NCBI GenBank assembly: GCA_965113315.1
Contig: OZ220375.1
Direction: 5' to 3' (one strand)
DNA from: Podarcis vaucheri
Lineage: Eukaryota
Length of the DNA: 64,000 bases
Shown one piece after another: positions 2,890 through 64,000 of this stretch (positions within the stretch are counted from its first letter, which is position 1; each line of letters starts with the position of its first letter). Below the pieces are notes generated by a model. The model saw only the letters and a list, made by a program, of their open reading frames with translations, searched no databases and was not told the origin of the DNA. Position numbers and translations under genes: made by a program.

Positions 2890-3931
2890 TTATTTGTACC
2901 CCGCCCATCTGGCTGGGTTTCCCCAGCCACTCTGGGCGGCTTCCAACAAAGATGAAAAATACACTAAAATGTCACATATTAAAAACTTCCCTGAACAGGG
3001 CTGCCTTCAGATGTCTTCTGAATGTCAGGTAGTTGTTTATCGCTTTGACATCTGATGGGAGGGTGTTCCACAGGGCAGGCACCACTACCGAGAAGGCCCT
3101 CTGCCTGGTTCCCTGTAACTTGGCCTCTCGCAGTGAGGGAACCGCCACAAGGCCCTCGGAGCTGGACCTCAGTGTCCGGGCAGAACGATGGGGGAGGAGA
3201 CGCTCCTTCAGATATACTGGACTGAGGCTGTTTAGGGCTTTAAAGGTCATCACCAACACTTTGAATTGTGCTCGGAAACGTACTGGGAGCCAATGTAGGT
3301 CTTTCAAGACCGGTGTTATATGGTCTTGGCGGCCGCCCCCAGTCACCAGTCTAGCTGCCGCATTCTGGATTAGTTGTAGTTTCCGGGTCACCTTCAAAGG
3401 TCACCCCACGTAGAGCGCATTGCAGTAGTCCAAGCGGGAGATGACCAGAGCATGCACCACTCTGGTGAGACAGTCTGCAGGCAGATAGGGTCTCAGCCTA
3501 CGTACCAGATGGAGCTGGTAAACAGCTGCCCTGGATACAGATTTGACCTGTGCCTCCATGGACAGCTGTGAGTCCAAAATGACTCCCAGGCTGCGCACCT
3601 GGTCCTTCAGGGGCACAGTTACCCCATTCAGGACCAGGGAATCCTCCACACCTGCCCACCTCCTGTCCCCCCAAAACAGTACTTCTGTCTTGTCAGGATT
3701 CAACCTCAATCTGTTAGCCGCCATCCATCCTCCAACCGCCTCCAGACACTCACACAGGACCTTCACCGCCTTCACTGGTTCTGATTTAAAAGAGAGGTAG
3801 AGCTGGGTATCATCCACATACTGATAAACACCCAGCCCAAACCTCCTGATGATCTCTCCCAGTGGCTGCATGTAAATGTTGAAAAGCATGGGGGAGAGGC
3901 CAGAACCCTGAGGCACCCCACAAGTGAGAGT
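2889..3931 (-). mobile_element. 5'-truncated L2-clade LINE (RT C-terminal part)
   Basis: GVPQGS, YVDDTQLY, LNPDKTE, SRLDYCNAL, LQLIQNAAARL, LHWLPV. One in-frame TGA at 3403-3401 splits the ORF; tail abuts the microsatellite. Confidence 0.9.
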
Positions 3932-4996
3932 TGCAAACGTGCTGCCACATTTATTTATGTATTTTAAACTCTTTAAACAAGCATAACAGACACTGCAGGG
4001 CACTGGAAGAAGCTTAAATTCCTTACATGGAAGTTATTGGACTGGCACGTGTGAGGTAAAGCAATCCCTAAAGTAAACCGGTCCCAATATATTAAGGACT
4101 TCTTATATGAATGTGTTAGTAGGTGCCTGATAAATGGTTTTAATACAATGGGAGAGAGGGAACTTCAGTCAAAGGGGCTCTATGCCCTCCAAATGTCTCT
4201 TCCAGGCCCTCAGAAGTCTTCCCAGGTTGTATTCCTCACTGGCTTTGCTTCATATCCTGAGATTTTGCCTGCCTGGAATATGTCCTTGAACTTTGATAAT
4301 AATACTGCTTGGCCTGAATTAAAAAAAAAATATTGTGCCAGCTCACAAGAAATGTTTTAAATAATTGACAATAAATCATGTTTATCCACACCTGAGAGAC
4401 TCAGTTTTGGTCACCTCCTGAGTCATCTTCTAGTAAGCTTGTAGACAGGAAAAAGGGCTTTTCTCCTTTATTAAAAATAAAATAAGAATGCTTTCTGTTT
4501 TCTAAAAGAGTACAGAAACAAACTTTTTATTTATGGTTTTCTTTGCACAAACTGTATTTGCAATTCCTCTGCATTAGAGAAACTGGGGAGGACAAAAGTG
4601 GAAATGAAGATGAATTTATTTTTTTTATCTAAGTAACATGGTGGATACTGCCAATGCTGTGCCATACTTTATCCTCCAATTTTTCCAAGCTTCTCCTGTG
4701 ATTCAGTATTATATCTTACTACCTCATTTTCATGCTGCTTTGATGTTTCACTGGGGGTGGTAGAGAGTTGAATTTAGCTCTGGGTTGTGAGATTGCTGAC
4801 ATTGGAAAGAGTGTTTTTCTTTGATCAAATATTTCTTCTGTGCCTCCTGATCACAATTTGATGCACCTCCCTGGACTTTAATGTAAGTTCAGGAAGCTTG
4901 TGACGCTGGCTCCTCATCAACTTGGATCAGTACACTTGCTAATTTTGTTTTTCAAGGAAGTTCATACTTTTACTTAAACAGATAAGTACATTTATA

Positions 4997-47544: not shown

Positions 47545-47602
47545 CCTGGCCTCCTAGCTTCTCTAAAAATACAGACCTTCCTGTGCCCATCAGTATCAAG
47601 TT

Positions 47603-49519
47603 GTGTGGCAAGTTCCCTCCCCCAAAGAAATGAAGGCACAGGACACGTTAGTTAAGGTTAATGGGCGTAAATGGCCACAACTTTATTGATTACAGAATTG
47701 AAGGTATTGGCCTTAGGCATTGGTTCCTATGACTACCCGGCATGGTAACCGGGAAGGGTTGAACACAAACCGTGGGGGTGTCCTGCTGGAGTACGCCAGC
47801 TAGGACCCCCACGGGTGTCACCGCTCGTGGGCGTGCCGGCGGCCCTCACCTTACTAGGTCTCGGACAAGGCAAACGCCCCCGGAGTCCTCTACCGGACTA
47901 CCCTTTTCTCGGGGGAAGGTGATGGCGTGTCCTTCCCCCCCATCCATTTGCATCACAATAGACCCCTGCCAATGCCTAACCGCCAAAACCGTGAAAGTTG
48001 TGACGATTTGCTACGAGGTAGGCGAAAAAACCAAAAGGCTGCAAAGTCGCCAACTTGGAAAAATTCCTACCAGGCCCCTTGCGGCGACCAACCGAAGTCC
48101 ATAGCAAGGTCAAGACTGCCTAACCTAAGGGTGGGTGGGCTGGGAAAAGCTTCTCTGCTGCCGAGGGGAAAGAGGGGGATCCCGGGGCGTGCCTGGCCTT
48201 AAATAGCCCAGGCCACGCCTCCCCAGCCCGCCTATTGGCGGGCAGGGGGAAGGCGGAGAGGCACGCCCCCGGGGATTCCCTGGCTCTCGCGGGGCTAAAC
48301 TCCAGCCCCGCGCTTGTGGGAGGGGCCAGCCCACAACACCCTCTCCTCCCGAGGCTCGGAAATGGCTTTGTGTGGCAAGTTCCCTCCCCCAAAGAAATGA
48401 AGACACAGGACACGTTAGTTAAGGTTAATGGGCGTAAATGGCCACAACTTTATTGATTACAGAATTGAAGGTATTGGCCTTAGGCATTGGTTCCTATGAC
48501 TACCCGGCATGGTAACCGGGAAGGGTTGAACACAAACCGTGGGGGTGTCCTGCTGGAGTACGCCAGCTAGGACCCCCACGGGTGTCACCGCTCGTGGGCG
48601 TGCCGGCGGCCCTCACCTTACTAGGTCTCGGACAAGGCAAACGCCCCCGGAGTCCTCTACCGGACTACCCTTTTCTCGGGGGAAGGTGATGGCGTGTCCT
48701 TCCCCCCCATCCATTTGCATCACAATAGACCCCTGCCAATGCCTAACCGCCAAAACCGTGAAAGTTGTGACGATTTGCTACGAGGTAGGCGAAAAAACCA
48801 AAAGGCTGCAAAGTCGCCAACTTGGAAAAATTCCTACCAGGCCCCTTGCGGCGACCAACCGAAGTCCATAGCAAGGTCAAGACTGCCTAACCTAAGGGTG
48901 GGTGGGCTGGGAAAAGCTTCTCTGCTGCCGAGGGGAAAGAGGGGGATCCCGGGGCGTGCCTGGCCTTAAATAGCCCAGGCCACGCCTCCCCAGCCCGCCT
49001 ATTGGCGGGCAGGGGGAAGGCGGAGAGGCACGCCCCCGGGGATTCCCTGGCTCTCGCGGGGCTAAACTCCAGCCCCGCGCTTGTGGGAGGGGCCAGCCCA
49101 CAACACCCTCTCCTCCCGAGGCTCGGAAATGGCTTTGTGTGGCAAGTTCCCTCCCCCAAAGAAATGAAGACACAGGACACGTTAGTTAAGGTTAATGGGC
49201 GTAAATGGCCACAACTTTATTGATTACAGAATTGAAGGTATTGGCCTTAGGCATTGGTTCCTATGACTACCCGGCATGGTAACCGGGAAGGGTTGAACAC
49301 AAACCGTGGGGGTGTCCTGCTGGAGTACGCCAGCTAGGACCCCCACGGGTGTCACCGCTCGTGGGCGTGCCGGCGGCCCTCACCTTACTAGGTCTCGGAC
49401 AAGGCAAACGCCCCCGGAGTCCTCTACCGGACTACCCTTTTCTCGGGGGAAGGTGATGGCGTGTCCTTCCCCCCCATCCATTTGCATCACAATAGACCCC
49501 TGCCAATGCCTAACCGCCA
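47603..49519 (-). repeat. 3' split-direct-repeat block of the Ngaro element; 767-bp period, ~2.5 copies (B3-X-A3-B2-X-A2-B1)
   Basis: B = 47603-47985, 48370-48752, 49137-49519 (383 bp). X = 47986-48145, 48753-48912 (160 bp). A = 48146-48369, 48913-49136 (224 bp). Copies look identical except G/A at 47636. Confidence 0.95.
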
Positions 49520-49546
49520 CTCGAGCAAAGCTCGCCGCCAATACCT

Positions 49547-50161
49547 TCAGGCCTGTAACCAACCCCTAATCCCTGCTATGATATCTCCCAACCATATATC
49601 ATTCCCTGCATCGGACAAATGCACGCCATCCCGCCTGTAGAGGGCCTCGTTGCTGAACTGTATGTTTGGGTGTCGGATGATGCACCCGCCCAAGGCCACC
49701 ACTCTACGTTCCACTGCCCGCTCTAAAACTTTCCTTGCTTTATTCACACCCACTGGGCTCGCGCAGTCCCTCCATGTCCTCCTCTCAAGCAACGAGGACC
49801 ACAGTATATTGATGTTTGGGTACACTGTCACCAGCTCGGACAGGTCATCAAAAATGTTCCATCTGAGGTCTATCGCCTTGCGGTATGCGAGGTCGTTCTC
49901 GCCCAACTGAATCACTAATGCATCCGGAGGCCCTTCAAAGGCAGCCTTCGCCATCACTGCTGGCTTGAACTCACTCCAGCGCATCCCTCTCCACGCTAGC
50001 CACGCCAGCTCCACCTTCGCAGGCAACTTCAGATTTTGCCCTAGCCCTGTACTCATGGCCCGAATCCTGGCCCAATGAACTATACTGTGGCCCACCAACC
50101 AGATGCGCGCCTTTTTAGATCCTGGAAAGCAAGCAGACGGGGAAAAGGGGTTTAGCGGCAT
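49547..50161 (-). CDS. SGNH/GDSL-type hydrolase ORF of the Ngaro element
   Basis: Block I LVGHS, block II RGM, block III QLGEND, block V DGVHLS: S-G-N-H residues plus DxxH. Confidence 0.85.
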   Translation of the reverse strand: MPLNPFSPSACFPGSKKARIWLVGHSIVHWARIRAMSTGLGQNLKLPAKVELAWLAWRGMRWSEFKPAVMAKAAFEGPPDALVIQLGENDLAYRKAIDLRWNIFDDLSELVTVYPNINILWSSLLERRTWRDCASPVGVNKARKVLERAVERRVVALGGCIIRHPNIQFSNEALYRRDGVHLSDAGNDIWLGDIIAGIRGWLQA

Positions 50162-50170
50162 ACCTCTTAG

Positions 50171-51061
50171 TCATACGCTATTTCTGACATATGTTTTATA
50201 AGCATTGGATCTCCATCTCCCCATTTCCTTAATCCTGTTGGTGGAGAGCCCCAGATGCACTGCGGTGGTGGCCGCCCCAATGCGGAAAGAATGTGCCGCA
50301 AACTCAGCCGCTGGTAGCCCACATGCCGTCAAAGCCATACGCATCACCCTGGTGAATTGCTGCCTGGCCAATCGCGACCCGTCTGCGTGGATCAGCAGGG
50401 GACCCGGGTTTTTTGGCCTGAGGTATAGAAAGCGTCTCGTGTCCCTTACCGGACAGGGGCCCTTGTCTTGGACTGCTGGAAGGCGGAGAAGAGTCCCTTT
50501 TCCCTGTTGGTCTGTCTTTGAGCTCCGCACCCTAACTATTAGATCCGACTGTGACAGGGTCAGATCGCTTAACAGGATGCCCCTCTGTGTATGGTTGACC
50601 CCCCCTTCGCAGACGACCTCCCCAATACGTAGTGCGCCAAAAAATGATATAGAGAACGCAGCCGAGAATAGGCGTGCTTCGTACTTAGACCAGCACACTG
50701 AGCGTAATGCTTTGTGAATCTGTGACAAGATGTCATACGTTATAGGCCGCCTCCTATCTGCACTAGGGGGGTGCTGTCTGCGCCATCCTTCCAGTGTCTT
50801 GCGTACGATAAAAGCCGCGCACGGGTCGGTCGCAAAAAAGGCTTTACAAAAGTAAGAAATCCCTGCTGACTGGATATTAAGGGTTTTGGGTGCCCTGCCT
50901 AACTCTTTCAGGTGAGCCAAGTAGTGGAGGACCTCTCTCGTTGAGGGTGTAGCGAAGGGCCTGGCGCCCGGTGTATTACTACGGAATTTTAGAAAATCCG
51001 CCCAAGCTTTCTTGTATGAACGCATTGTGGACGGAGCCACAGCACCGAATACTCCCTTCAT
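50171..51061 (-). CDS. Tyrosine recombinase (296 aa)
   Basis: FFGALRIGE (catalytic R), SKTDQ, CPV, HSFRIGAAT (HxxR), GRWRSNAYKTY (W and catalytic Y). The ATG overlaps the RT stop as TAATG. Confidence 0.95.
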   Translation of the reverse strand: MKGVFGAVAPSTMRSYKKAWADFLKFRSNTPGARPFATPSTREVLHYLAHLKELGRAPKTLNIQSAGISYFCKAFFATDPCAAFIVRKTLEGWRRQHPPSADRRRPITYDILSQIHKALRSVCWSKYEARLFSAAFSISFFGALRIGEVVCEGGVNHTQRGILLSDLTLSQSDLIVRVRSSKTDQQGKGTLLRLPAVQDKGPCPVRDTRRFLYLRPKNPGPLLIHADGSRLARQQFTRVMRMALTACGLPAAEFAAHSFRIGAATTAVHLGLSTNRIKEMGRWRSNAYKTYVRNSV

Positions 51062-52914
51062 TACTTCTCTCTCCCAAGATTCCAGAGATGCTCCGGGAAA
51101 GGCATCGATGATTGCTCCGCATCCGGCGCTAAAGAGCGAAAGCGCTCCATCTGAAAACGAGACAGAGCATCCGCGATGTCATTATTAACGCCAGGTACGA
51201 ATTTGGCCGAAAAGTATATGTTCCGTTCCAGACACAGAAGTACAAAGGATCGTAGGAGGTTTCCTACTCTGGAGGAGCGTGCGGATTGTCTAGCCAGGAC
51301 CGAAACCACTGCCTGATTGTCTGTATTGAAACAAACCCTATGATTGCTAAACTGCTCCGCCCAAAGATGTACCGCTACTACTATCGGGAAAAATTCCAAA
51401 AATGTAAGGTCGCGGGTAATGGGCTGACCCCGCCATTCCTGGGGCCACTCTCTGGCGCACCATTGGCCTTTAAAGTAGACCCCAAAACCCAGCGACCCTG
51501 CCGCATCTGACTGAACCTGGAAGTCCGCGCTCAGTGCCATGGAGTCCTGCCATAGAGATATACCGTTGTACCTTTCCAAAAATTGCAGCCAGACGCCCAG
51601 GTCAGCCTTGACTTCCTTGGATAGGCGTACCCTATGCTGTGGTGCCTTAAGGCCCGCCGATAATCTGGCCAAGCGGTTACAAAAGGGGCGCCCCGGCGCC
51701 ACCACCCTACAGGCGAAATTTAAATGACCCAGCAATGATTGAATCTGTTTCAGGGTGATTTTCTTTAGGGGCAACAGCTGTTGAATCAATGCCTTGAGTG
51801 CCAAGAGCTTATCTACTGGCAACCGTGAGGTCTGGGCCACAGTATCCAGCTCAATACCCAAATACACTAAACAGGTGGCCGGGCCCTCCGTTTTGTCAGC
51901 GGCTAGAGGTACCCCCAATTCCCTCGCCAAGGCTGTGAAGGCCTCGAGGAGGGCTGAACAACGGGCTTTACTGTCAGCAGCCAAAATAAAATCATCAAGA
52001 TAATGCGACACACCCAACGACCCAGTTTTGTGTTGTAAAGCCCAATCCAGAAATGTGCTAAAGGATTCAAAGGCCGCGCAAGCCACGGAGCAGCCCATGG
52101 GCATCGCCTTGTCGATAAAATAAGCCCCTTCAAATTTAAAGCCTAACCATCGGAAGTCCTCTGGACGCACTGGGAGAAGGCGGAAGGCCGACTCGATGTC
52201 ACACTTTGCTAAGAATGCCCCCTGCCCAAATCTCCGAATCATTTTTACTGCCTGATCGAAGGAGGCGTATTTGACTGAACAGAGCTCCTGGGGAATTGCA
52301 TCGTTGACTGAGCCCCCCCTAGGGTATGAGAGGTTATGAATCATCCGAAATTCCCCAGGGGCCTTTTTTGGAACGATGCCCAGGGGAGATAGATGAAGTC
52401 CTGCCAAGGGTGGCTCATCGAAGGGACCAGCCACTCTTCCTGCCCTGATTTCTTTCTCTATCTTTTTCCTAGCTATATCGGGCCTCTCCCTAACTGATTT
52501 TTGATTTTGGGGTACGCCGGAATTGGGGGGAACAGCGACCGGGATTCTGAAACCTTTGGAGAAACCTTCCCATAGATAGTGTGCGGCTTCACGATCAGGG
52601 TATATTTTTAGCAGGGTATTTAAAGGCTGTAAGCGGATAGGGGAAAAAGCCATGCCAAGATCGAAATTATTAACGGATACCTGAAACCTAGTGGAGGGAT
52701 CCGCTGATGCCTCTGGTAAAGCTGTGTTGATATTATTGGCGGTTACCTGCTCCCAGTTGTGCGGATCCGGGGGCGCCCCTGGCGTTGCTGTGGGAGTACC
52801 CCCTGCCACCCCGAAAGGGCTGTTGTTTACCCTTGAAGCAGGCAGAGGCGGGATGGTTACCCCAGCAGCGCTCACACTCGTGGAGGTACTTACAGAAGGG
52901 GCGTGTGCATGCAC
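51061..52914 (-). CDS. Ngaro reverse transcriptase / RNase H
   Basis: SPLGIVPKK, FRMIHNLS, KCDIESAFR, MPMG, YLDD, YLGI. RNase H motifs SDAAG, LEFFPI, TDN, NNDIADALSR. Overlaps the gag 3' end in another frame; the true start is uncertain. Confidence 0.93.
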   Translation of the reverse strand: MHAHAPSVSTSTSVSAAGVTIPPLPASRVNNSPFGVAGGTPTATPGAPPDPHNWEQVTANNINTALPEASADPSTRFQVSVNNFDLGMAFSPIRLQPLNTLLKIYPDREAAHYLWEGFSKGFRIPVAVPPNSGVPQNQKSVRERPDIARKKIEKEIRAGRVAGPFDEPPLAGLHLSPLGIVPKKAPGEFRMIHNLSYPRGGSVNDAIPQELCSVKYASFDQAVKMIRRFGQGAFLAKCDIESAFRLLPVRPEDFRWLGFKFEGAYFIDKAMPMGCSVACAAFESFSTFLDWALQHKTGSLGVSHYLDDFILAADSKARCSALLEAFTALARELGVPLAADKTEGPATCLVYLGIELDTVAQTSRLPVDKLLALKALIQQLLPLKKITLKQIQSLLGHLNFACRVVAPGRPFCNRLARLSAGLKAPQHRVRLSKEVKADLGVWLQFLERYNGISLWQDSMALSADFQVQSDAAGSLGFGVYFKGQWCAREWPQEWRGQPITRDLTFLEFFPIVVAVHLWAEQFSNHRVCFNTDNQAVVSVLARQSARSSRVGNLLRSFVLLCLERNIYFSAKFVPGVNNDIADALSRFQMERFRSLAPDAEQSSMPFPEHLWNLGREK

Positions 52915-54253
52915 CCCTGTTGAACTCCCAACACTGGCGCCGCCGTTTTACCTCGGTCTTGCCCACTTTAGCCGAATCCAGATTTTTCTTATCAATGTAT
53001 GGATTCACATCTTCTCCCCAGTAGTTTGGATCAGTAAGGTCCCATCGGGTGGTAGGGTGCAGAGACGCGTTTCTGCGGAAATTCTCATCATATATCAGTG
53101 CAGCATTTTCTCCCGCGAGTGCGCGGGCCCTCCTTACGTGAGCCATATAGGCCACGAGATCCATGGAGCGTCTGGGATAAGCAGCGCACACGACCCCCAT
53201 AAACACCTGATAGCCATCTAGCCAGTTCTCGAAAGTGCGCTCCGCTCTAGGCGTTCTATACCTTCTCTTACCGTAAGAGCGCCTCTTTTCACCTCTTCCC
53301 ACTAATTTGTTAGGAGGAAGGAGGGTAAATATATCCACGTACTCCCCATTAAGGATTTTATTCCTCTTTTTCTGTGATAGATGGTTCCCCAATATGAAAT
53401 CCGTGGGCTGGTTGGTGGCAACTTTTACCTCCTCTACTAGAGCCCCGTCCTTCCAATCAAGCACCCCATTAAAGGTCTTCCGATGGGAATTGGCCCTCCG
53501 TTGATGTGCCCACAAAGGAATCCCATGAATACTTTCACCTTGACCCCAGTAGCCATCCATGGGGCCCTCACTATCAGAATCTGAAGAGGACGTACCTGTA
53601 TCCTCATCCGAGTCCGATTTGCTGCTCCTCTTCTTTTTTGCGGAGGTGTGCTTCTTCTTTGACTTCCTCTTACCCCCTTGCGTGCCTGTGTCGGCTGAGT
53701 TGGTCTCCGCGGCCGACTGAGGTGGTTGAGGTTCCACTCGGTCCTCGTCGGACCCCGAACCTGCGCTGTCCTCGGTGGAGCTATGCTGAGGCTCTTCCTC
53801 CTGAAAAACACTCGGAATACCTGATGTTTGTGAGAGGGGTATGACATTGGCCCCCTTAGCCGGAGTCTTCCCTTTGTCCCCACGCTTCGCAGGTGCCTTG
53901 CCCTTGCTGCCACCTTGTGCCGCCTTCCTGGATAGCGCGGACTGGGCACGTGTATTGGGGCGGCTTGCGGTTGATGTCACAGGCAGGGCATTGGCTGCTG
54001 CCACGAGAGGTGCACCAACCTGACCTTGATTGGCTGGTGGCGTGTCAGGTATGATGTTCTGTGAGGGCTCTGGGGCCGGAAGAGCCCCGGGCACGGGTCT
54101 GCATTGTCTATAAAAAGATTCAAATGCCCTGAAAAGCTGGTCAAAAGTTTGAGGATTGCAAGATATTGACACCATGCGTGCGCCCTCACTACCTGCAGCA
54201 CCCGCTGACTGATTACCGGAGGTGGAGGGCTGTTGCTCGCCTCCGGAAGCCAT
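52733..54253 (-). CDS. Ngaro Gag-like ORF1 (506 aa)
   Basis: Low-complexity N-terminal half, basic/acidic linker, and C-terminal zinc fingers CWEFNRGACTRPFCKYLH (CCCH) followed by CERCWGNHPASAC, as expected for YR-retrotransposon ORF1. Confidence 0.85.
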   Translation of the reverse strand: MASGGEQQPSTSGNQSAGAAGSEGARMVSISCNPQTFDQLFRAFESFYRQCRPVPGALPAPEPSQNIIPDTPPANQGQVGAPLVAAANALPVTSTASRPNTRAQSALSRKAAQGGSKGKAPAKRGDKGKTPAKGANVIPLSQTSGIPSVFQEEEPQHSSTEDSAGSGSDEDRVEPQPPQSAAETNSADTGTQGGKRKSKKKHTSAKKKRSSKSDSDEDTGTSSSDSDSEGPMDGYWGQGESIHGIPLWAHQRRANSHRKTFNGVLDWKDGALVEEVKVATNQPTDFILGNHLSQKKRNKILNGEYVDIFTLLPPNKLVGRGEKRRSYGKRRYRTPRAERTFENWLDGYQVFMGVVCAAYPRRSMDLVAYMAHVRRARALAGENAALIYDENFRRNASLHPTTRWDLTDPNYWGEDVNPYIDKKNLDSAKVGKTEVKRRRQCWEFNRGACTRPFCKYLHECERCWGNHPASACFKGKQQPFRGGRGYSHSNARGAPGSAQLGAGNRQ

Positions 54254-54350
54254 TGCAATCGCAACTGTTTTTTAACAAACCTGCAAATCTAGCAAGGCGA
54301 ACAGACCCCCCCTTCCACCTCTACTTTTCTTTTATAAATAAACTTTATTT

Positions 54351-54528
54351 NNNNNNNNNNNNNNNNNNNNNNNNNNNNNNNNNNNNNNNNNNNNNNNNNN
54401 NNNNNNNNNNNNNNNNNNNNNNNNNNNNNNNNNNNNNNNNNNNNNNNNNNNNNNNNNNNNNNNNNNNNNNNNNNNNNNNNNNNNNNNNNNNNNNNNNNNN
54501 NNNNNNNNNNNNNNNNNNNNNNNNNNNN
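54351..54528. other. Assembly gap (178 N)
   Basis: Run of N in the 5' untranslated part of the Ngaro element. Confidence 0.99.
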
Positions 54529-56126
54529 TAGTTATATAACCACACCAGTAAGAATTATTATCAAGTGTATCTGTAAATTTTATTCAAAGGGATTAGAGGG
54601 AGGGGAATTAACCTAAAGAGGACGCCTGACCGGTAAGTATGTAAACAAATCCGATGCCAATTAAACGCTTACAAGCTAATCAGCGTATATCTAAACAGTC
54701 AGCTTCGCACCACTCGCCTCTTGCACCAGGTCCAATTGCTTATGCTTAATCTGAACTTGAGTGGAGCACCAAAGGGAGAACAGCGAGAGCTATGCCCCAA
54801 TGAATGACCTTAAGTCTGTTTCCAAATTTTATTGCCAGGAATTATAGTGGAGGCCGCCTATCCGGCCTTATGTAATTAATTCTGATGCCAATTAAATGCT
54901 TTACCACGCTAATCCAGCTTAAAAGCTCCTCAACTAGTACTAAAAAAGATTTGTAACAATAAAGGAAATTTTTAATTCTATTTTATTTATTCTATTTTTC
55001 AAAAAAAAAAAAAAACCAACTATTTAACTAATACTCTTCTTGTATTGCCAGAAATCTCTTACAATGCATAAACATGAACTGTTGTGTGACTAGCCTGGCT
55101 GCTAAAGGAGATATAACGCTGTAAAATAAGGTCTCCAAATCGCAGGCTGCAATAACAACTCCTGCCGCTAGGTGGCAGTGTTCCCTAGGAATTAGCAGAA
55201 AACAAACCCTCGGCTGCAGACAGAAAGGCAGTTCAATCACCAGAATATAAAGCAGCAAAAACTACTGAAAAACGGGCAATAACAGAAGGAAAAGCAACTA
55301 AATAATCTCTAAATAACAGAAGGAAAAGCGGAGATAAAAGTTAAATGGCCCTACTCAAAATGGCTGCCGGGACGCACCACGGCGACCTTACCAAGATGGC
55401 GGCCGGGAGGGAGATGCCCTCAGTCAAACTGGCGTCCCTCAACAATTATGGCCCTAAGTAACCAAACGTCCAGAAAGCGGTATTAAATGCAGGTACAACA
55501 ACAACCACTAAATATCAGAGGCAGAAACGGAGAAAACAATAAAATGTCACACTCAAAATGGCCGCCGCTGGAATGCCACGTGGACCTTCCCAAGATGGCG
55601 GCCGCTGTGACCTTCCTCCCTTACACAATTTCTGCTTCGTTTGCCCTTAAATATGGCGCCTGCCTCTCCTTAGCAGACTCCCTTGCCAAAGATGGCTGCC
55701 GCGACTTCAATCACCCCCCCCCCCACAAATACAGACAGCTGAAGAAACCACAGAAAAAACACAGCGATTTCGGCAAAATCAGCAGGTAAAATCGGAGGCA
55801 GCACGGGAGGGCTAGTGGCAAGGCACAGCGGCAGCGAAGTGAGAGGGGAGAGGAGAGGGGAGGGTTATGAGCAGAGGAAAGGCTACGGAGATGCAGCGCC
55901 ACGGGGATGGGACGGCAGCAGTACAGCAGAAATAGGCAGAATTAAAGCGACCAAGTTGTGGAACCAGCAGAATAAAGCAGGCAATCGCCGCGCAGGGGAA
56001 AATTCGGTCCTGTGGCCGCAGTGATACTATACCCGTCTTCTTTGCTGGTGTTCCGGTCTGAGCTGAAGGAAGCACCCTGCTCTGGACGGATTTTTGTGCA
56101 GGTAGAGTAGGAAGGTAAGGAAAAAG

Positions 56127-56350
56127 AAAGCTTCTCTGCTGCCGAGGGGAAAGAGGGGGATCCCGGGGCGTGCCTGGCCTTAAATAGCCCAGGCCACGCC
56201 TCCCCAGCCCGCCTATTGGCGGGCAGGGGGAAGGCGGAGAGGCACGCCCCCGGGGATTCCCTGGCTCTCGCGGGGCTAAACTCCAGCCCCGCGCTTGTGG
56301 GAGGGGCCAGCCCACAACACCCTCTCCTCCCGAGGCTCGGAAATGGCTTT
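56127..56350 (-). promoter_or_regulatory. Ngaro 5' repeat A1 with candidate Pol II promoter
   Basis: Identical to A2/A3. On the - strand: CCAAT (56219-56215), GC-box-like GGGGAGGCGTGGC, and TATTTAA (56186-56180), in canonical order facing gag. Confidence 0.65.
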
Positions 56351-56906: not shown

Positions 56907-57441
56907 TGTCAGGCTTCAGGGAATTAGCTTCTTCCCACTGTGGTGGCAGTAGATAAGCAGAACAAAGGAAAGGAGTCTTCTTACCAGTTAGAAACTTTAA
57001 TAATCACAGCGAGAGAACAAAGAACAAACTTCCTAGAAATGGCGGTGCTCCCAATTAAGTTCACCAACTCTCCCATCCCTTATTAATCTACATCTTCTAA
57101 TCTGAGTTTGGAACTGCTGTGTTTTCTATTCTGCCACTTTCTGAGCTCTCTGGGACTTTGGGGAAGGGGAGGTAGATACTCTCCAGAAACTGTAAATCTG
57201 TTAACCCTCTCTCTTCCAGTGTTTCTTCTCGTAGTTGTTCCCCATCCAGTATTTCCCAGCTTCTGCCTTCTGAACTATATCCTTCTGCAAACCACTGTTC
57301 CAAATCTTTACTGTCCTCCTGCTCCTGTGAAGATTCAGGATTTGGATCAGGAGCTCCTGTGAAGATTCAGGATCCAGATCAGGAGGGGGAGGCTCCCACC
57401 ATTCCTCCTCAGTGCAGCCCTCCTCAGAACGGTCCCTGATA
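56907..57441 (-). mobile_element. Solo LTR, same family as 42562-43322
   Basis: Reverse-complement similarity along its length (gaggaatggtgggagcctcccc, cagaaggcagaagctgggaaatactggatggg, gattattaaagtttctaac, tgaagcctgaca). Confidence 0.78.
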
Positions 57442-57916
57442 CTGCATTTGATTATGGTGAACAAATCATGGTGATTTGGATGATTGCAGGGAGAGATAAT
57501 AACTTTCTCAGATGTTTAGCTCAGAGTGGCACTTTTGGCAACCAAGATGCTGGTGCTTGTGTGTTTACTCTAAATTGACTACGTTTCTGCTCCCTTATGG
57601 CACAAAAAATGGCAATTGGTTTTCTGTTTTCCCATGTGAGTCAATGCCAATCAAAGTGAAGCCATTTTCTTTGGAGTTGCAAAACGTAGCAAATTCAAAT
57701 ACAATGGAATCAGTTTAAGACAAAGGTATCACTCAGTTTTTCTCAATATTTGCTCCCTATTGTCCAGCTCAGGCCTCAGCACAATGGTGTAACACTTCAG
57801 GGCAAAGACAATCCCTCCCTCAAAAGACTGCCACTCTGGAGACATTCTTAGTCATGGGCTGTATACTAAAACCCTTAATATAGAAAAAATCAATAAGATA
57901 ATAACAAAAGTATTAC

Positions 57917-60900
57917 TCAGTTCTTTCTCATTATTTGCTCCCTATTGTTCAGCTCAGGCCTCAGCACAATGATGTAGCATTTACGGGCAAAAATGCAGCC
58001 CAATAATCCAGCGCTGGAGGACAAGATGGAGAAGATCTCCACCTCCACCATGGATTTCCCTTTGGTGTTTAGATATGTTGGGATAAAGGTCAGCCAAACA
58101 CTGCAAAACAACAACATGCTGAAGGTAATAAACTTGGCTTCATTAAAACTGTCTGGTAATTTGCGAGCTGCAAATGCCACAATGAAGCTGGCAAGAGCCA
58201 GGAGGCCCATGTAGCCCAGAACAAGATAAAACAGGGTCACAGACCCTTCATTACATTGCACAATGGTCTCTTCTGCTACAGAGTCCATGTCTAGATCGGG
58301 GAATGGGGGAGAAGTCATCAACCACACAGTACAAATACTTGCTTGAGTAAGAGAGCAGGAAAGGAAAATGGCATAAGCCAGACGTTTTCCTACCCACTTC
58401 CTTGTGCTAGATCCTGGGTTAGTGGCCATAAAAGCTACAACTACAGTGACAGTTTTCGCCAACACACATGAAACAGCCAGTGAGAAGACGATGCCAAATG
58501 TTGGTTGGCGAAGAATGCAGGTCACTTCCCCAGGTTTTCCAACGAATAGCAAAGATGAGAGGAAGCAGAACAGTAGCGAGATGAGGAGAATGTAAGTTAG
58601 ATCCCGGTTGTTGGCTTTGACAATGGGAGTATCTTTGTATTTAATAAAAGTTCCTATCACCAAACTTGTGAGCAGTGAAAAAGAAAGAGCAAGTGAGGCC
58701 AAGCTGATCCCAAATGATTCATTGTAAGAAAGAAAGCTTATTATTTTGGGGATGCATCCAGTTTTGTTCTTGTTTGGATACTGATCTCCTGGGCATATGA
58801 TACACTCATCCATATCTGAAAAGTAGAATAAGGTCAAATTCCAGTAGCAATTCATGTGTGCTCTTTACGTCTTTTTTTATCTTATCCTTCTGATTTTAAG
58901 GGATTTATAATTATATAACAGTATGTGAAATAATTTTTTTGAGTATTCTGCTGAATGTATGATGTTTGAATTTAAACAATATTAAGCTGCTGCTCCATGC
59001 ACCCTGCACATCAGGGCTTGTTACAACTACACGTAAATGGGGGGGCATCAGGCATCAGTGGGCTCTTGTGTTGCTTGGGAGGGCACAAGGGGCCTGGTAG
59101 AGCATAGAATGAAAGCATGCCCCCAGATCAAGTGAGACTGGCCTTACATAACTCATCCCATGGTTGCCTTCTGGGATCCAGGATACTTGTCTTATGACAC
59201 ACCAGTGCTGGTCAACTCCTAAGGGTATTGATTGGATGCATTTCAACCATCAAGTGGAATTTGAACTGCACGTGCTCATTGAAATGATAACCCTTATGCT
59301 TTTGCCAGCCCTGCTTGCCTGTGCAATAATGAATACAAATCTGGCCTCATTGCAACCTAATTGCAACTCCTAGGCAATTATAGCTCAAACATAACTTTGT
59401 TTATTTGGCGATCTGTACTATGAACGCGAGTGGCACTGTGGGGGACACGGGTGGCACTGTGGTCTAAACCACAGAGCCTAGGGCTTGCCGATCAGAAGGT
59501 TGGCAGTTTGAATCCCCACGATGGGGTGGGCTCCCATTGCTCAGTCCCTGCTCCTGCCAACCTAGCAGTTCCAAAGCACCTCAAAGTGCAAGTAGATATC
59601 TACCTTAAGGACTACTATAAACTCGCTGAATGTTAGAATGTCGAGGTTTGAGTAAGAAAGGGTTACAGCGAAATAAGATTAGATTGAAGAAAAGATTAAG
59701 AAGACAGAGGACTGACAGATGTACTTAGAGTTGCTAAAAACTTTTGGACAGTTGGATGCAGAAAGGGGAGGTATGGGGAAGTCGGAGAAACATGGTTTAT
59801 GAAAAAAGGTTATGAAACTATACGTGTTTGTATGTCTTTTTACATGTTTGTATTGTCCTAAAAAAAATGTAAAACCAATAAAAAATTTATAAAAAACAAA
59901 AAAACAAAGTGCAAGTAGATAAATAGGTACCGCTCCAGAGAAAAGGTAAATGGTATTTCCGTGCACTGCTCTGGTTCACCAGAAGCGGCTTAGTCATGGT
60001 GGCCACATGACCTGGAAGCTGTATGCTGGCTCCCATGGCCAGTAAAACGAGATGAGCGCCACAACCCCAGAGTCATCTGCAAGTGGACCTAATTGTCAGG
60101 GGTCCCTTTTCCTTCACCTTTAGGCAATTATAGTACTTGATATGTGTACAACAAAATACATTTGAGCGAAGTGGGGAGCACTTCCGTATCTAGGTTCATA
60201 GTATTGCAACAGGTTTATTTGTTTTTGAATATTTCCTTCACATGTTACTGAAAAAATGCAGAAAAACATTAGCACACAGCTCTAAGCAGGATAGTCTGGT
60301 TGCATGTAAAAATGTAGCATTTAAATCGATTTGACACAATAATCTTTACTAAAATTGAACAATGAAAAATGTTGTGTACCATTTTGGTTGGAAATCTTCC
60401 CTTCTGGACATGGAGTACAATCATAGCAGCAAAATTTCTGCCCTTCCTTCCTTTTCTTCTGACTACCAGGGCGGCAGTAGTCATTACACAGAGAAATGGG
60501 CATCACCTTTCCAGAAACAAGAAATAATTTCATAAGGGAGAAACTGAACGTCTTATCCAAAGTGCTTCATATGAAGTGCAGCAATTAGCCCATATTTTGT
60601 TAGGGGACCAGAAAAAGCAGCAAGACACAAGACCAGAAAAAATGCAAGATACATGAAATAAGCTAGGGCCATTTTATCAGCTGTAACTTTAGGAATTTAT
60701 AAATAGCAAAGGACATGTGTGGAAAATGCTTAAATCAATCAGGCTCCTAAACTGGCACTAATTGGGTGAGGTCTTCATGATTCATAACACCTTTAAAATC
60801 TTGCAGGTTCTTACACAGAGCACTGTGACAAGTCTCTAGAATTAGAATCCACAAGGGGCTCAATTTCTTTGCCAACCTCTTTCCTTTCCCACACCCACCT

Positions 60901-63439
60901 GCCAAGTGACCAGAAAGCCAATTCAAGTAATGTGTATCCCACCTGTCGTTCCTGGTGGAAGTATCAAAGTAGGTGGAAGGAAGGTAGGTGGAAAAGGTCA
61001 ACCAGCCCATTTTGACCAGTCAAACATAGGAAGGAACATAAATTCCTGCTTGACACCAACTATGATGACAAGCTTATCTCATACTGCATAGTGGGAGGGA
61101 AGGCTTGGTGCAAACTCTCCTAAGAAGGAGGGGCAGAGGTAGGTGGAAATGACTTTATATCCTTTGTGATTTACTAACTAGCAGTAGCTCAAAACCACGC
61201 ATGAAGCCAGAAAATGAGTTCTGGGCCTTCTAAGGTGGGGTTCAGATTGTGAAGCAATATTAGTTCTCTAGGAATACTGCAAAAGGTTGGGTTTTTGTCA
61301 GTCCTATTGTCATGAAATTAATTTGATATGGGATCTGCAACTGAGCCATGGACCCTTTTCAAATGAAGCAGTAACCATCCATATCTGCCCCATGACTAAA
61401 TTTTATCTGAATCTTTCTAAGCTCTGTCATACAAAATAAAACCCAATGAATATTGTTAAAACTTCATTTTAACTAAGAACATAGAAATTAAAGCGCTTTT
61501 CGCAGTTGCATCCAGCTAGGTTTTCAGATTTTTCCCATGAAGCAGTCAAAAAGAAAAGTGGTGCTTATCAAGAGAGTGCATTGGGTCAAAGAAATACCCA
61601 ATTTCCAGACCTGGTTAAAGCCTTTGTTCCACAAAATAATGTCCTCATGAATGATTATCTCGTTTCTATTGACAGCAAGGGGATCCACCCATCCAACCTT
61701 CACTCGAAGGAAAGACTTGTTTGGGAAGGTGACCATGTTTGTGATGTCAAATCTACCTCCCATTTCTCTTTTATTAGCAAAAGACACTCTTTCTCCAGCT
61801 GAGTTGTTAAATGAAATGTCAGGAAGAAAATGGTGCAACTAATTGAAAGAGAAAAGAAAGATTAAGGGGAAATAACATAATAGAGATATTGAAGAAAATG
61901 GCTTGATGTATAAATGAGCACCATTTACATATAATTATGTTTGCTTGACAAAGCAGATGAAAAAATTGTTATGCATACAGTGAAAATAAATTCAGCCAAA
62001 TGCACAGGATTTAATATGAAAACATAAAGCTTTGCCAGTTAGTGACATGAGGAATACCACTGCAGCATTACTTCTGCATGAAAATTGTGATGAAATCTTA
62101 AGATGTATATTTGTAAAGTATTACCTGCCAAGGCTGCAGATCTTGAAGTTTTAATTTTCCACTGATACCCAATGTTCTCTGCTTGGATGTAGACAAGTAA
62201 ATAGCATGCAAAGTGTGAGCCACAACATAAACAGCATTGTAGATACTGTAACTATGGCCAGATAGTTCCATTGCAAAAAGAGAGCCTGGAAGACTCTCCA
62301 AACTCTCCTCCCCAGTACACAGTTCTTTGAGCTCCACTGTCAGATGGGGATTTGGAACTATACAGTCAAATGCTTGCTCCCAGAAGTCCTTGAGAAAATG
62401 ATCTCCCTGGCTCCAGGAAGGCTTGATGGTCAGAAGAAAATCTTTGAAATTTAGAAGATTTTGTGAATGAATTGTGAGGGATATGGCGCCTTGAAAGAGT
62501 TGAAAATCCCAAGAACTAACAAGCCCCGTTGCAATGAAATCAGTATGCGCTGTCAAAATCCACACCTTTTTAATTGCTAAGTTTTCCTTATTGGTTGGAT
62601 CTCGCAAAAATATAATAGCTCTCAGCGCTATAATTGTCAGAGATTCTCCATAGACAACAAATGTAGTTACTTTATTATCTGTGAGCAATGCATACAAATT
62701 TAAGGCTACCTCATGCATTTCATCCAGCTTATCAAGATGGAGTTGACGTGGGATTCTTTGTGTAAAGGCTGAACAAATTCCATTTTGAGAAAGCAGTGGC
62801 TCCAAGGTCTTGATGAAATATTCTCCAGTGTTATCATTTGGAGCAAAGAGTCCAACCCAGATCCATCCAAAATGCTTAAGCAAGCTAATAACCCCCCAAA
62901 ATTGATGGGCTTCATTGGGCACCATTCGATAAAAGGACGGGGACTGACTTGTGTCACCCTCTGGAGGAAATGAACCATATGCAAGCTATATATATATAAA
63001 AATCAGTTATGAAGTTATGTGAAAAGAATTCATAATGTGCAATGTGAAATTTCATTTAACAAATATTTGTTTAAACAATGTATAGGTTAAATCCAATATG
63101 GTCAGTAGGAATACAAACATTCCTATGCACCCCTTCAGACATCTTACCTGGGGAATTTTGTAGAGACTTAATATATCAGCCATATGTAAGGAGGTATCAG
63201 AGCCAAGTCCTCCAATGATGGATATGAGGGTTTTCTGGGTGTCACATTTGTAGTTGGAAATAAATGTACCCATTTTGAAGAGGAGGTCTAATGTAGTGCG
63301 GTAGGTCATCCTTGCATCATAGTAGCTATCATAGATGTGGAACCCCAGTGTGACATTGTGCAAAATGTTGGGATTCTCATTTATTTCTTTCACAGCAAAT
63401 GCCAAGGCAAGGACATGTTGGTAGAATTTGGTCACCACA
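57917..63439 (-). CDS. V2R gene G, exons 2-6 (exon 1 beyond the window end)
   Basis: complement(join(57917..58815,60380..60506,61611..61838,62125..62985,63148..63439)). Exon sizes 292/861/228/127/899, GT-AG, open frame. Confidence 0.9.
59442..60121 (+). mobile_element. Sauria SINE interrupted by an L1-type fragment (59599-59904)
   Basis: The SINE halves are separated by a ~306-bp A-tailed insert with a 17-bp TSD caaagtgcaagtagata (59582-59598 / 59905-59921). Confidence 0.85.
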
Positions 63440-63544
63440 CTGCAAATAAAGTAAAGGAATTACAGAAATGAATAAACCACAATACTGGACACATTCCTCA
63501 TCAAATTAATCAAAACCGAAAGAAATTATTGGAAACCAAGCATT

Positions 63545-63795
63545 ATGTGGAGCGGTTGAAAGAGCTGGGTATGTAGATCCGGGAAAAGAGGAGACTCAGA
63601 AGAGATATGATAGCCGTCTTCCAATATCTCAAGGGCTGTCACATGGAAGATGGAGCAAGCTTGTTTTCTCCTGCTTTGGAGGGTAGGACTCAAGACAATG
63701 GCTTCAAGTTACAATAAATGAGATTCTGGGTAAACATCAGGAAGAACTTTCTACAAGAGCACTCTGACTGTAAGAGTTGTTCACCAATGCAACTG
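63545..63795 (+). mobile_element. Degenerate CR1 RT fragment in gene G intron 1
   Basis: YVERLKELGM...RRLRRDMIAVFQYLKGCHMEDGASLFS...IRKNFL, with a stop and a frameshift. Confidence 0.8.
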
Positions 63796-64000
63796 TCTTA
63801 CTGTCCCTCACTTTTTATTTTTTCTGCCCCAACCTTCCTCTGTATACAATGTCTCACATCAAATGTAACTGTTCTGTAGAAAGAACTCTACAGCCTGAAA
63901 AAGAGATGATGCACATACTTTTGTAAATGAAGAAAATCTTTAATAAAAATTATTTAAAGAAAACAGTAGGTGACTGAAATGAGGAGTCCCTCAAGGGTGG

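Follow-up and report, generated by a model that had tools for sequence, protein, structure and literature searches.

DIRS-53_XT of Xenopus is an SGNH-hydrolase Ngaro retrotransposon that, in the part of its description considered here, has the order A1-gag-RT/RH-YR-SGNH-B1-A2-B2 (RT/RH, reverse transcriptase/RNase H; YR, tyrosine recombinase) with identical repeat copies (PMC9210276). In the sections of the respective reports drawn on here, SIRE of Trypanosoma cruzi corresponds to A2, approximately 30 unique bp and B2 of VIPER (PMC6681497), and solo AB repeats occur among the Cafeteria Ngaros (PMC8547959). For DIRS-1, the relevant part of the account describes a single-stranded cDNA route in which a non-coding cis repeat signal is needed after first-strand synthesis, and states that the primer is unknown (PMC7192593). 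The conserved C-rich box described below bears on priming and end rebuilding in YR retrotransposons with split direct repeats.

A Ngaro element with an additional A-X-B unit

The window, i.e. the whole 64-kb stretch of DNA analysed here, consists of class C GPCR genes of the V2R type arranged as a tandem cluster, as judged from matches to 7tm_3 and ANF_receptor. About six V2R-type units of ~10 kb each occupy positions 1-46000 and 57000-64000, the last one being inverted, and an RT fragment lies within this array at 3401-4033. A single GC-rich element extends on the minus strand from 56350 to 47601 with the layout A1-gag-RT/RH-YR-SGNH-B1-A2-X-B2-A3-X-B3.

The element begins with the A1 repeat (56127..56350), which is not followed by a C-rich box. 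Four open reading frames, all open and all on the minus strand, come next: ORF1 (52733..54271), assigned as gag-like solely by its position and a weak Pfam match of a C-terminal CCCH-like finger (E 0.016); the RT/RNase H ORF (51061..52947; RVT_1, E 4e-14); the YR ORF (50171..51178); and the SGNH hydrolase ORF (49547..50170), which spans 207 amino acids from stop to stop and has a weak match to Lipase_GDSL_2, with PF13472 carried by several of its homologues. The YR residues R, K, H-x-x-R, W and Y are invariant across 41 aligned proteins, and the nearest named YR is from Podarcis muralis (93%), which makes a lacertid lizard the probable host. No Pfam match to a methyltransferase was found in the element ORFs at E <= 1. 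The leader between A1 and gag is ~1.8 kb long (54350-56126), includes an N gap (~54350-54528) and carries two internal imperfect repeats (55301-55405/55500-55604 and 54618-54681/54850-54914); it is far longer than in the invertebrate-type relatives, in which the first ATG is at most ~60 nt from A1.

The 3' end, also read on the minus strand, consists of B1 (49135..49519), A2 (48913..49136), X2 (48753..48912), B2 (48368..48752), A3 (48146..48369; 224 nt), X3 (47986..48145; 160 nt) and B3 (47601..47985; 385 nt, starting with TGGCGG). B and A overlap by an AA dinucleotide, and the B1-A2 junction is a copy of the circle junction. The three A copies are identical letter for letter, as are X2 and X3 and also B1 and B2, while B3 is off by one base at 47636. 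The same dinucleotide AA is common to both element ends, and a paralogous copy of the site in the window, which lacks the element, can be aligned through the point of insertion at this AA, i.e. the insertion took place at a short shared core without a target-site duplication. In total, the element has split direct repeats of the type A1...B1 A2 B2 with one additional A-X-B unit, a gag-like ORF followed by RT/RNase H and YR ORFs, the optional SGNH hydrolase 3' of YR, and no methyltransferase domain. We conclude that it is an ordinary member of the Ngaro tyrosine-recombinase retrotransposons and, in evolutionary terms, apparently young.

The number of A-X-B units varies among relatives. L087 has two units, and hence the same triple layout as the window; L073 has one, and its paralogue L076 has none in the same flanks. 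L073 and L076 lie on one contig and are paralogous copies of a single insertion, related by a natural B-to-B deletion of A2-X-B2. Thus, unit number changes through exchange between B copies and, given this natural variation, the extra unit in the window needs no special function. No solo A-X-B copies were found in the 64-kb window. Whatever the mechanism by which the unit acts, its third occurrence, A3-X-B3, might instead be an artefact in which the assembly over-expanded a canonical B1-A2-X-B2 end. An identity of 99.9% over 1152 nt and the N gap in the leader would fit such an artefact; however, the base at which B3 differs from B1 and B2, the triple layout in L087 and the loss of a unit between L073 and L076 argue against it, and we regard it as unlikely.

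A conserved C-rich box at the A-X boundary

Using the 41-protein YR alignment as query, we recovered 80 metagenome loci and 50 genome-bin loci, the contigs of which we take to be animal host DNA. Many of the genome bins from GTDB (L081-L130) carry complete eukaryote-type Ngaro elements, which are probably host contamination. A search of IMG/VR returned no relative. Repeat boundaries were determined by self-BLAST and thus blind to motifs. In 131 sequences with a placed YR end, repeat pairs were found in 38 and all four repeats in 14 loci. Short, collapsed or ambiguous loci are omitted from the main count; L046, which belongs to the same family as L055, was left out and L075, in which only A1 and A2 were defined, was added, giving 15 families in the boundary count. 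L091 resembled an inverted assembly artefact.

The original prediction was to fall if X were absent or unconserved in related Ngaros. X was present in all 15 resolved elements (the window included) and has a box conserved in most families, so that on this point the prediction was not refuted. The length of X ranges from 48 to 950 nt, and no sequence common to the relatives was found in X beyond the box; similarly, A, X and B of the window had no nucleotide similarity to the first 80 loci except short words.

In the window, the box opens X3 at 48129..48144 (minus strand) with four C3 tracts, which on the cDNA strand make up a strict G-quadruplex motif; the box of X2 is at 48911-48896. The 20-nt G4Hunter minimum was <= -1.2 at the A2-X boundary in 12/15 families, whereas it reached this value in 0/15 at the boundary between A1 and the sequence that follows it, a control with the same upstream sequence (Wilcoxon p 4e-4); because families share ancestry, the counts are not wholly independent. 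After re-alignment, the count rose to 13/15 as L100 joined, BLAST having overrun its true repeat end. The signal was restricted to the first 20 nt of X (G4Hunter means -1.8 and -1.0) and was ~0 on both flanks. The strict four-C3 motif was detected at the A2-X boundary in 8/15 families compared to 0/15 controls, and a relaxed motif in 12 compared to 2. Moreover, the first C-tract is at most 1 nt from the end of the exact A1/A2 identity in 10 of the 12 box families; in the other two, it is at +1 once the BLAST overhang is trimmed (L108) and at +1 of the BLAST end (L126).

The repeat end could be defined in another seven loci, and six of them begin with the box (L041, L083, L092, L096, L107 and L111); in L015, which has a 55-nt repeat, no box follows the repeat. 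L093 and L095 have a T-run in place of the box. Box-bearing elements are present in both main branches of the YR tree (30 rows), and the recombinases of box-bearing families are ~33-42% identical to the YR of the window. The letters between the C-tracts vary (A, T or G); this variation speaks for a structure or a protein site rather than for a fixed primer. As a candidate for a cis base-pairing partner of the box, self stems of 6-9 bp were compared with cross-element means of 7.6-8.5 in 11 elements, and the candidate was rejected. In the literature searched, no mention of the C-rich box was found; the founding Ngaro paper or the later Poulter reviews may contain one.

Promoter-like motifs, folds and reads over the A-X-B unit

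The original prediction read A-X-B as a small transcription unit for a ~0.5-kb non-coding RNA. The motifs on which this reading was based are all present in the last unit. On the minus strand, A3 carries CCAAT at 48238-48234, GC-box-like words at 48269-48262 and 48222-48213, and TATTTAA at 48205-48199, 53 nt before the A end, with these promoter-like motifs lying inside a strong fold. B3 carries AATAAA at 47687-47682, 81 nt before the B end, followed by a GT/T-rich stretch, and X plus B has no convincing ORF, the longest ATG-started frame 3' of the TATA having 35 codons. In 5000 dinucleotide shuffles, TATWWAW in A had a probability of 0.004, and of 0.0004 when combined with CCAAT 20-90 nt upstream; AATAAA in B had a probability of 0.057 anywhere and of 0.019 in the final 130 nt. 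Thus, TATA and CCAAT are beyond chance, with borderline significance for the poly(A) hexamer. However, A3 and B3 have these motifs because they copy A1 and B1: judging from the family layout, the full-length RNA must start from A1 and end in a distal B, and any A-X-B will consequently resemble a transcription unit, as any LTR does. Among distant relatives, AATAAA was found in B in 1/14 and a strict TATA within the last 100 nt of A in 2/14. The Pol II signals are not general among Ngaros.

The A repeat folds strongly (z -4.8 as RNA and -5.6 as DNA), and its CCAAT and TATTTAA lie in the loops of hairpins; B folds moderately (z -2.6), and X alone is unstructured (z -0.9). As a general feature, the strong A hairpin was rejected, z being <= -2 in 4/14 only. 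In B3, an 11-bp closing stem (47979-47969 with 47723-47713, minus strand) surrounds a multi-hairpin domain. AATAAA is partly paired in both of its contexts, i.e. in B1 and in B2/B3. Upstream of B1, a segment that overlaps the SGNH stop (Y; 49537..49563, minus strand) is predicted to pair with 49245-49219 of B1 over 13 + 12 bp, covering AAT of AATAAA. By comparison, a block at the 3' end of X (47994..48004, minus strand) has a predicted 11-bp pairing with 47684-47674 (p 0.90-0.97), which at B2/B3 would cover the AAA half; given this pairing in the window, an X-B RNA would take up a defined fold of its own. The alternative helices mask different AATAAA halves at B1 and at B2/B3 and might act as a read-through switch.

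To compare elements, we determined the longest stem with B relative to 40 shuffles (p <= 0.05) in 14 elements. The 50 nt before B1 scored positive in 9/14, the X end in 3/14 and the control after A1 in 0/14. The Y-B1 stems are 10-13 bp long and have unrelated letters among elements. An energy-based duplex test was weak, with z <= -2 in 3/14 for Y-B, 2/14 for X-B and 2/14 for the control, and a value of -0.9 for Y-B in the window. X-B pairing as a general feature was therefore rejected by both the longest stem (3/14) and the energy (2/14). The most widely kept stem, accordingly, uses sequence upstream of B1 that is present in the long RNA only. In the second YR clade, the word CTTGGG recurs before B1 with its partner CCCAAG inside B (L046, L053, L073, L085, L095, L098, L100, L114 and L121).

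Of the first 80 loci, 14 carry SGNH, and three of these, all SGNH-type Ngaros far from lizards (L013:4440-4870, L019:2275-2680 and L065:6679-7055), share the B layout of the window, TGGCGG-hairpin-TGGCGG-long stem-TGYGGCC, in which the last word corresponds to TGTGGCC of B3 (47679-47673, minus strand). Their stem letters are wholly different and they are without AATAAA; such B stems occur at 0.7-3.3% of random starts. This covarying B stem also belongs to the long RNA.

As single-stranded DNA, the B-A junction folds with z <= -1.9 in 14/14 elements, including B1-A2 of the window (z -2.4), and a folded single-stranded junction is a possible substrate of the recombinase. On either side of the shared AA at B1-A2 of the window (49090-49170) lie the arms of an imperfect inverted repeat, an arrangement resembling a YR core site. 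In L085, L095, L098, L100 and L126, TTAA words with ~11-bp spacing are present at the start of A after the B-A junction and are candidate recombinase binding sites. The region before B1 is G-rich, with a mean G4Hunter score of +0.6 to +1.2.

Sequence runs were compared with 48753-50552, i.e. Logan contigs from three runs that are RNA only by guess (X15-X17) and raw reads from a DNA capture run (X24). In X24, from a related organism, depth at 80% likeness peaked at ~330 and 190 at the X 3' block and the AATAAA block, respectively, and was 6-11 over most of the SGNH ORF; because the library is a targeted capture, these peaks show shared sequence and not copy number. The X 3' block is common to many diverged lizard copies, the junction letters of which retain it, and no compensatory changes were seen in the X 3' block of these copies. 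In the contigs guessed to be RNA, the part of A that precedes the TATA had a depth near zero, and X and B were covered, a pattern compatible with short starts; of the contigs listed, two cross AATAAA and B-A (run X15, record 1; run X17, record 14, which includes the B end and all of A), as read-through would produce. The patterns thus point both ways. These contigs carry no start, strand or level, they come from different organisms, and A is fast-diverging and hairpin-rich, and the patterns were given no weight in either direction.

Proposed function of the A-X-B unit

Based on the anatomy of these elements, we suggest that A-X-B is probably the normal 3' end apparatus of Ngaro, present twice in the window and acting in cis during reverse transcription. 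The long RNA would start after the TATA of A1 and end in the distal B, and RT would make minus-strand cDNA from it. Synthesis of a plus-strand copy of B1-A2 would begin in the structured, G-rich region that precedes B1 and halt at the box, a stop for which a G-quadruplex on the cDNA template is the most likely cause. Because the repeats are direct, incomplete cDNA ends should be mendable only by an opposite-strand copy of B-A; this bridge would anneal to both incomplete ends, restore them and close the circle, which the recombinase would integrate at the B-A junction. Any transcripts initiating in A2 or A3 would arise as by-products of the second promoter copy, much as 3'-LTR transcripts do.

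When a polymerase stops at a G-quadruplex in its template, the edge is sharp and lies immediately ahead of the first tract. The proposed stop would account for the first C-tract marking the end of the A1/A2 identity, and for a box that is found behind A2 but never behind A1. However, two of the 15 families (L093 and L095) have a T-run instead, the strict pattern is present in just 8/15, and an edge just as sharp would be expected from a site that binds a primer or a protein. We assign this specific job to the box only tentatively, at somewhat below even odds.

Were the box an initiation site, it would act much as a retroviral primer-binding site does at the edge of an LTR: a primer, or a protein that primes, would be bound there, and the minus strand started at this point would define the A end. 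The sharp boundary fits this idea equally well, and the order Y-[B1 A2]-box may resemble PPT-LTR-PBS; however, the variable linker letters fit no fixed primer, the self stems reveal no covarying cis partner, and X and B2 would require a second priming event, making such a role quite improbable. Spaced C-tracts match the binding preference of poly(C)-binding proteins and of Sp/KLF proteins, and the box could accordingly act on RNA or transcription by binding one or the other, in the case of Sp/KLF as a CACCC box, with the distal B serving as 3' end, with RNA stabilisation or with tuning of an internal promoter; the helices over AATAAA, in which Y masks one register at B1 and X another at B2/B3, would in that case set read-through at B1 and cleavage at B2. 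These RNA-level roles, even taken together, appear improbable, as they leave the end of the A1/A2 identity at the first C-tract unexplained and as AATAAA is missing from B in 13/14 relatives. None of these alternatives for the box requires a separate RNA.

A separate RNA was at the centre of the original prediction, in which a short X-B RNA from A2 or A3 could serve RT as primer, template or scaffold; we considered it as a selected 0.5-kb RNA used in trans. Because X is universal and carries a conserved box, a short RNA started in A2 is plausible, and the chances that an X-B RNA exists as a by-product are about even. In addition to TATA and CCAAT, a role in trans could draw on the predicted well-defined X-B domain closed by an X-B helix, on the B stem layout that L013, L019 and L065 retain despite their different letters, and on the primer of the DIRS order being stated as unknown in the part of the DIRS-1 report considered here (PMC7192593). 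Against it, the motifs are imposed by A1/B1 identity and mostly lacking in distant relatives, the X spacers have nothing in common beyond the box, and stems of B involve Y at B1 three times as often as the X end (9/14 versus 3/14). A conserved covarying fold specific to a separate RNA was not found, X being unstructured and the X-end/B stem present in 3/14, and seven Rfam matches, all at ~18-20 bits compared to gathering scores of 60-80, are within noise, i.e. no known RNA family was found. We consider a selected RNA used in trans very improbable, and a dedicated, retron-like RNA for RT likewise. Also highly improbable is the broader reading in which Ngaros across animals make a short RNA from an internal A, with the C-rich box at its 5' end and a folded B domain, as a working part of the replication complex, supplying or positioning the primer while a cDNA G-quadruplex at the box fixes the repeat boundary. 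If true, it would amount to a module of RT, recombinase and small RNA, plus a replication stop defined by a G-quadruplex in a eukaryotic retrotransposon.

Altogether, a cis-acting end apparatus is likely to be the correct reading rather than a dedicated non-coding RNA gene. The observation behind the original prediction is confirmed and its interpretation is partly supported: the unit does have promoter motifs beyond chance, which are nevertheless those that identity with A1 and B1 imposes, and the idea of an RNA module dedicated to RT is not supported. The element is itself an ordinary Ngaro; the finding of use is the box that is conserved at its repeat boundary. Located at the exact A end and kept across families, the box offers a target of 16 nt together with a predicted position for the stop; the Y-B1 stem and the folded B-A junction are further directly testable sites.

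Retroviruses use short cis signals, i.e. the PBS, the PPT and the central termination sequence, to fix the start and stop of repeat copying. The box would have the same fixing role; by contrast, it is defined by C-tracts and lacks a fixed primer sequence of the tRNA-like kind. In Chlamydomonas, TOC1 reportedly has split repeats with a unique spacer at its right end, and that repeat unit is said to yield a discrete ~450-nt sense RNA, a likeness in favour of an X-B RNA; to our knowledge, no function is known for it. TOC1 is, by the same account, a non-autonomous element of the PAT group, unlike the element in the window; it is a lead only.

The gene and repeat layout of DIRS-53_XT is like that of the element in the window, the additional A-X-B unit being present only in the latter, and the part of the DIRS-53_XT description considered here mentions neither a signal in the spacer nor a C-rich box or an RNA fold (PMC9210276). 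With SIRE and the Cafeteria AB repeats, as far as the relevant sections describe them, the window shares a unit of A, unique spacer and B as a recognised entity; those units are dispersed and solo, whereas in the window the unit is in tandem inside a full element (PMC6681497, PMC8547959). Finally, the internal complementary region of DIRS-1, as presented in the part of the report considered here, is like A-X-B a non-coding cis signal to rebuild the ends; in DIRS-1, the inverted repeats anneal within one strand, whereas the direct repeats of Ngaro would need a bridge copied from the opposite strand (PMC7192593).
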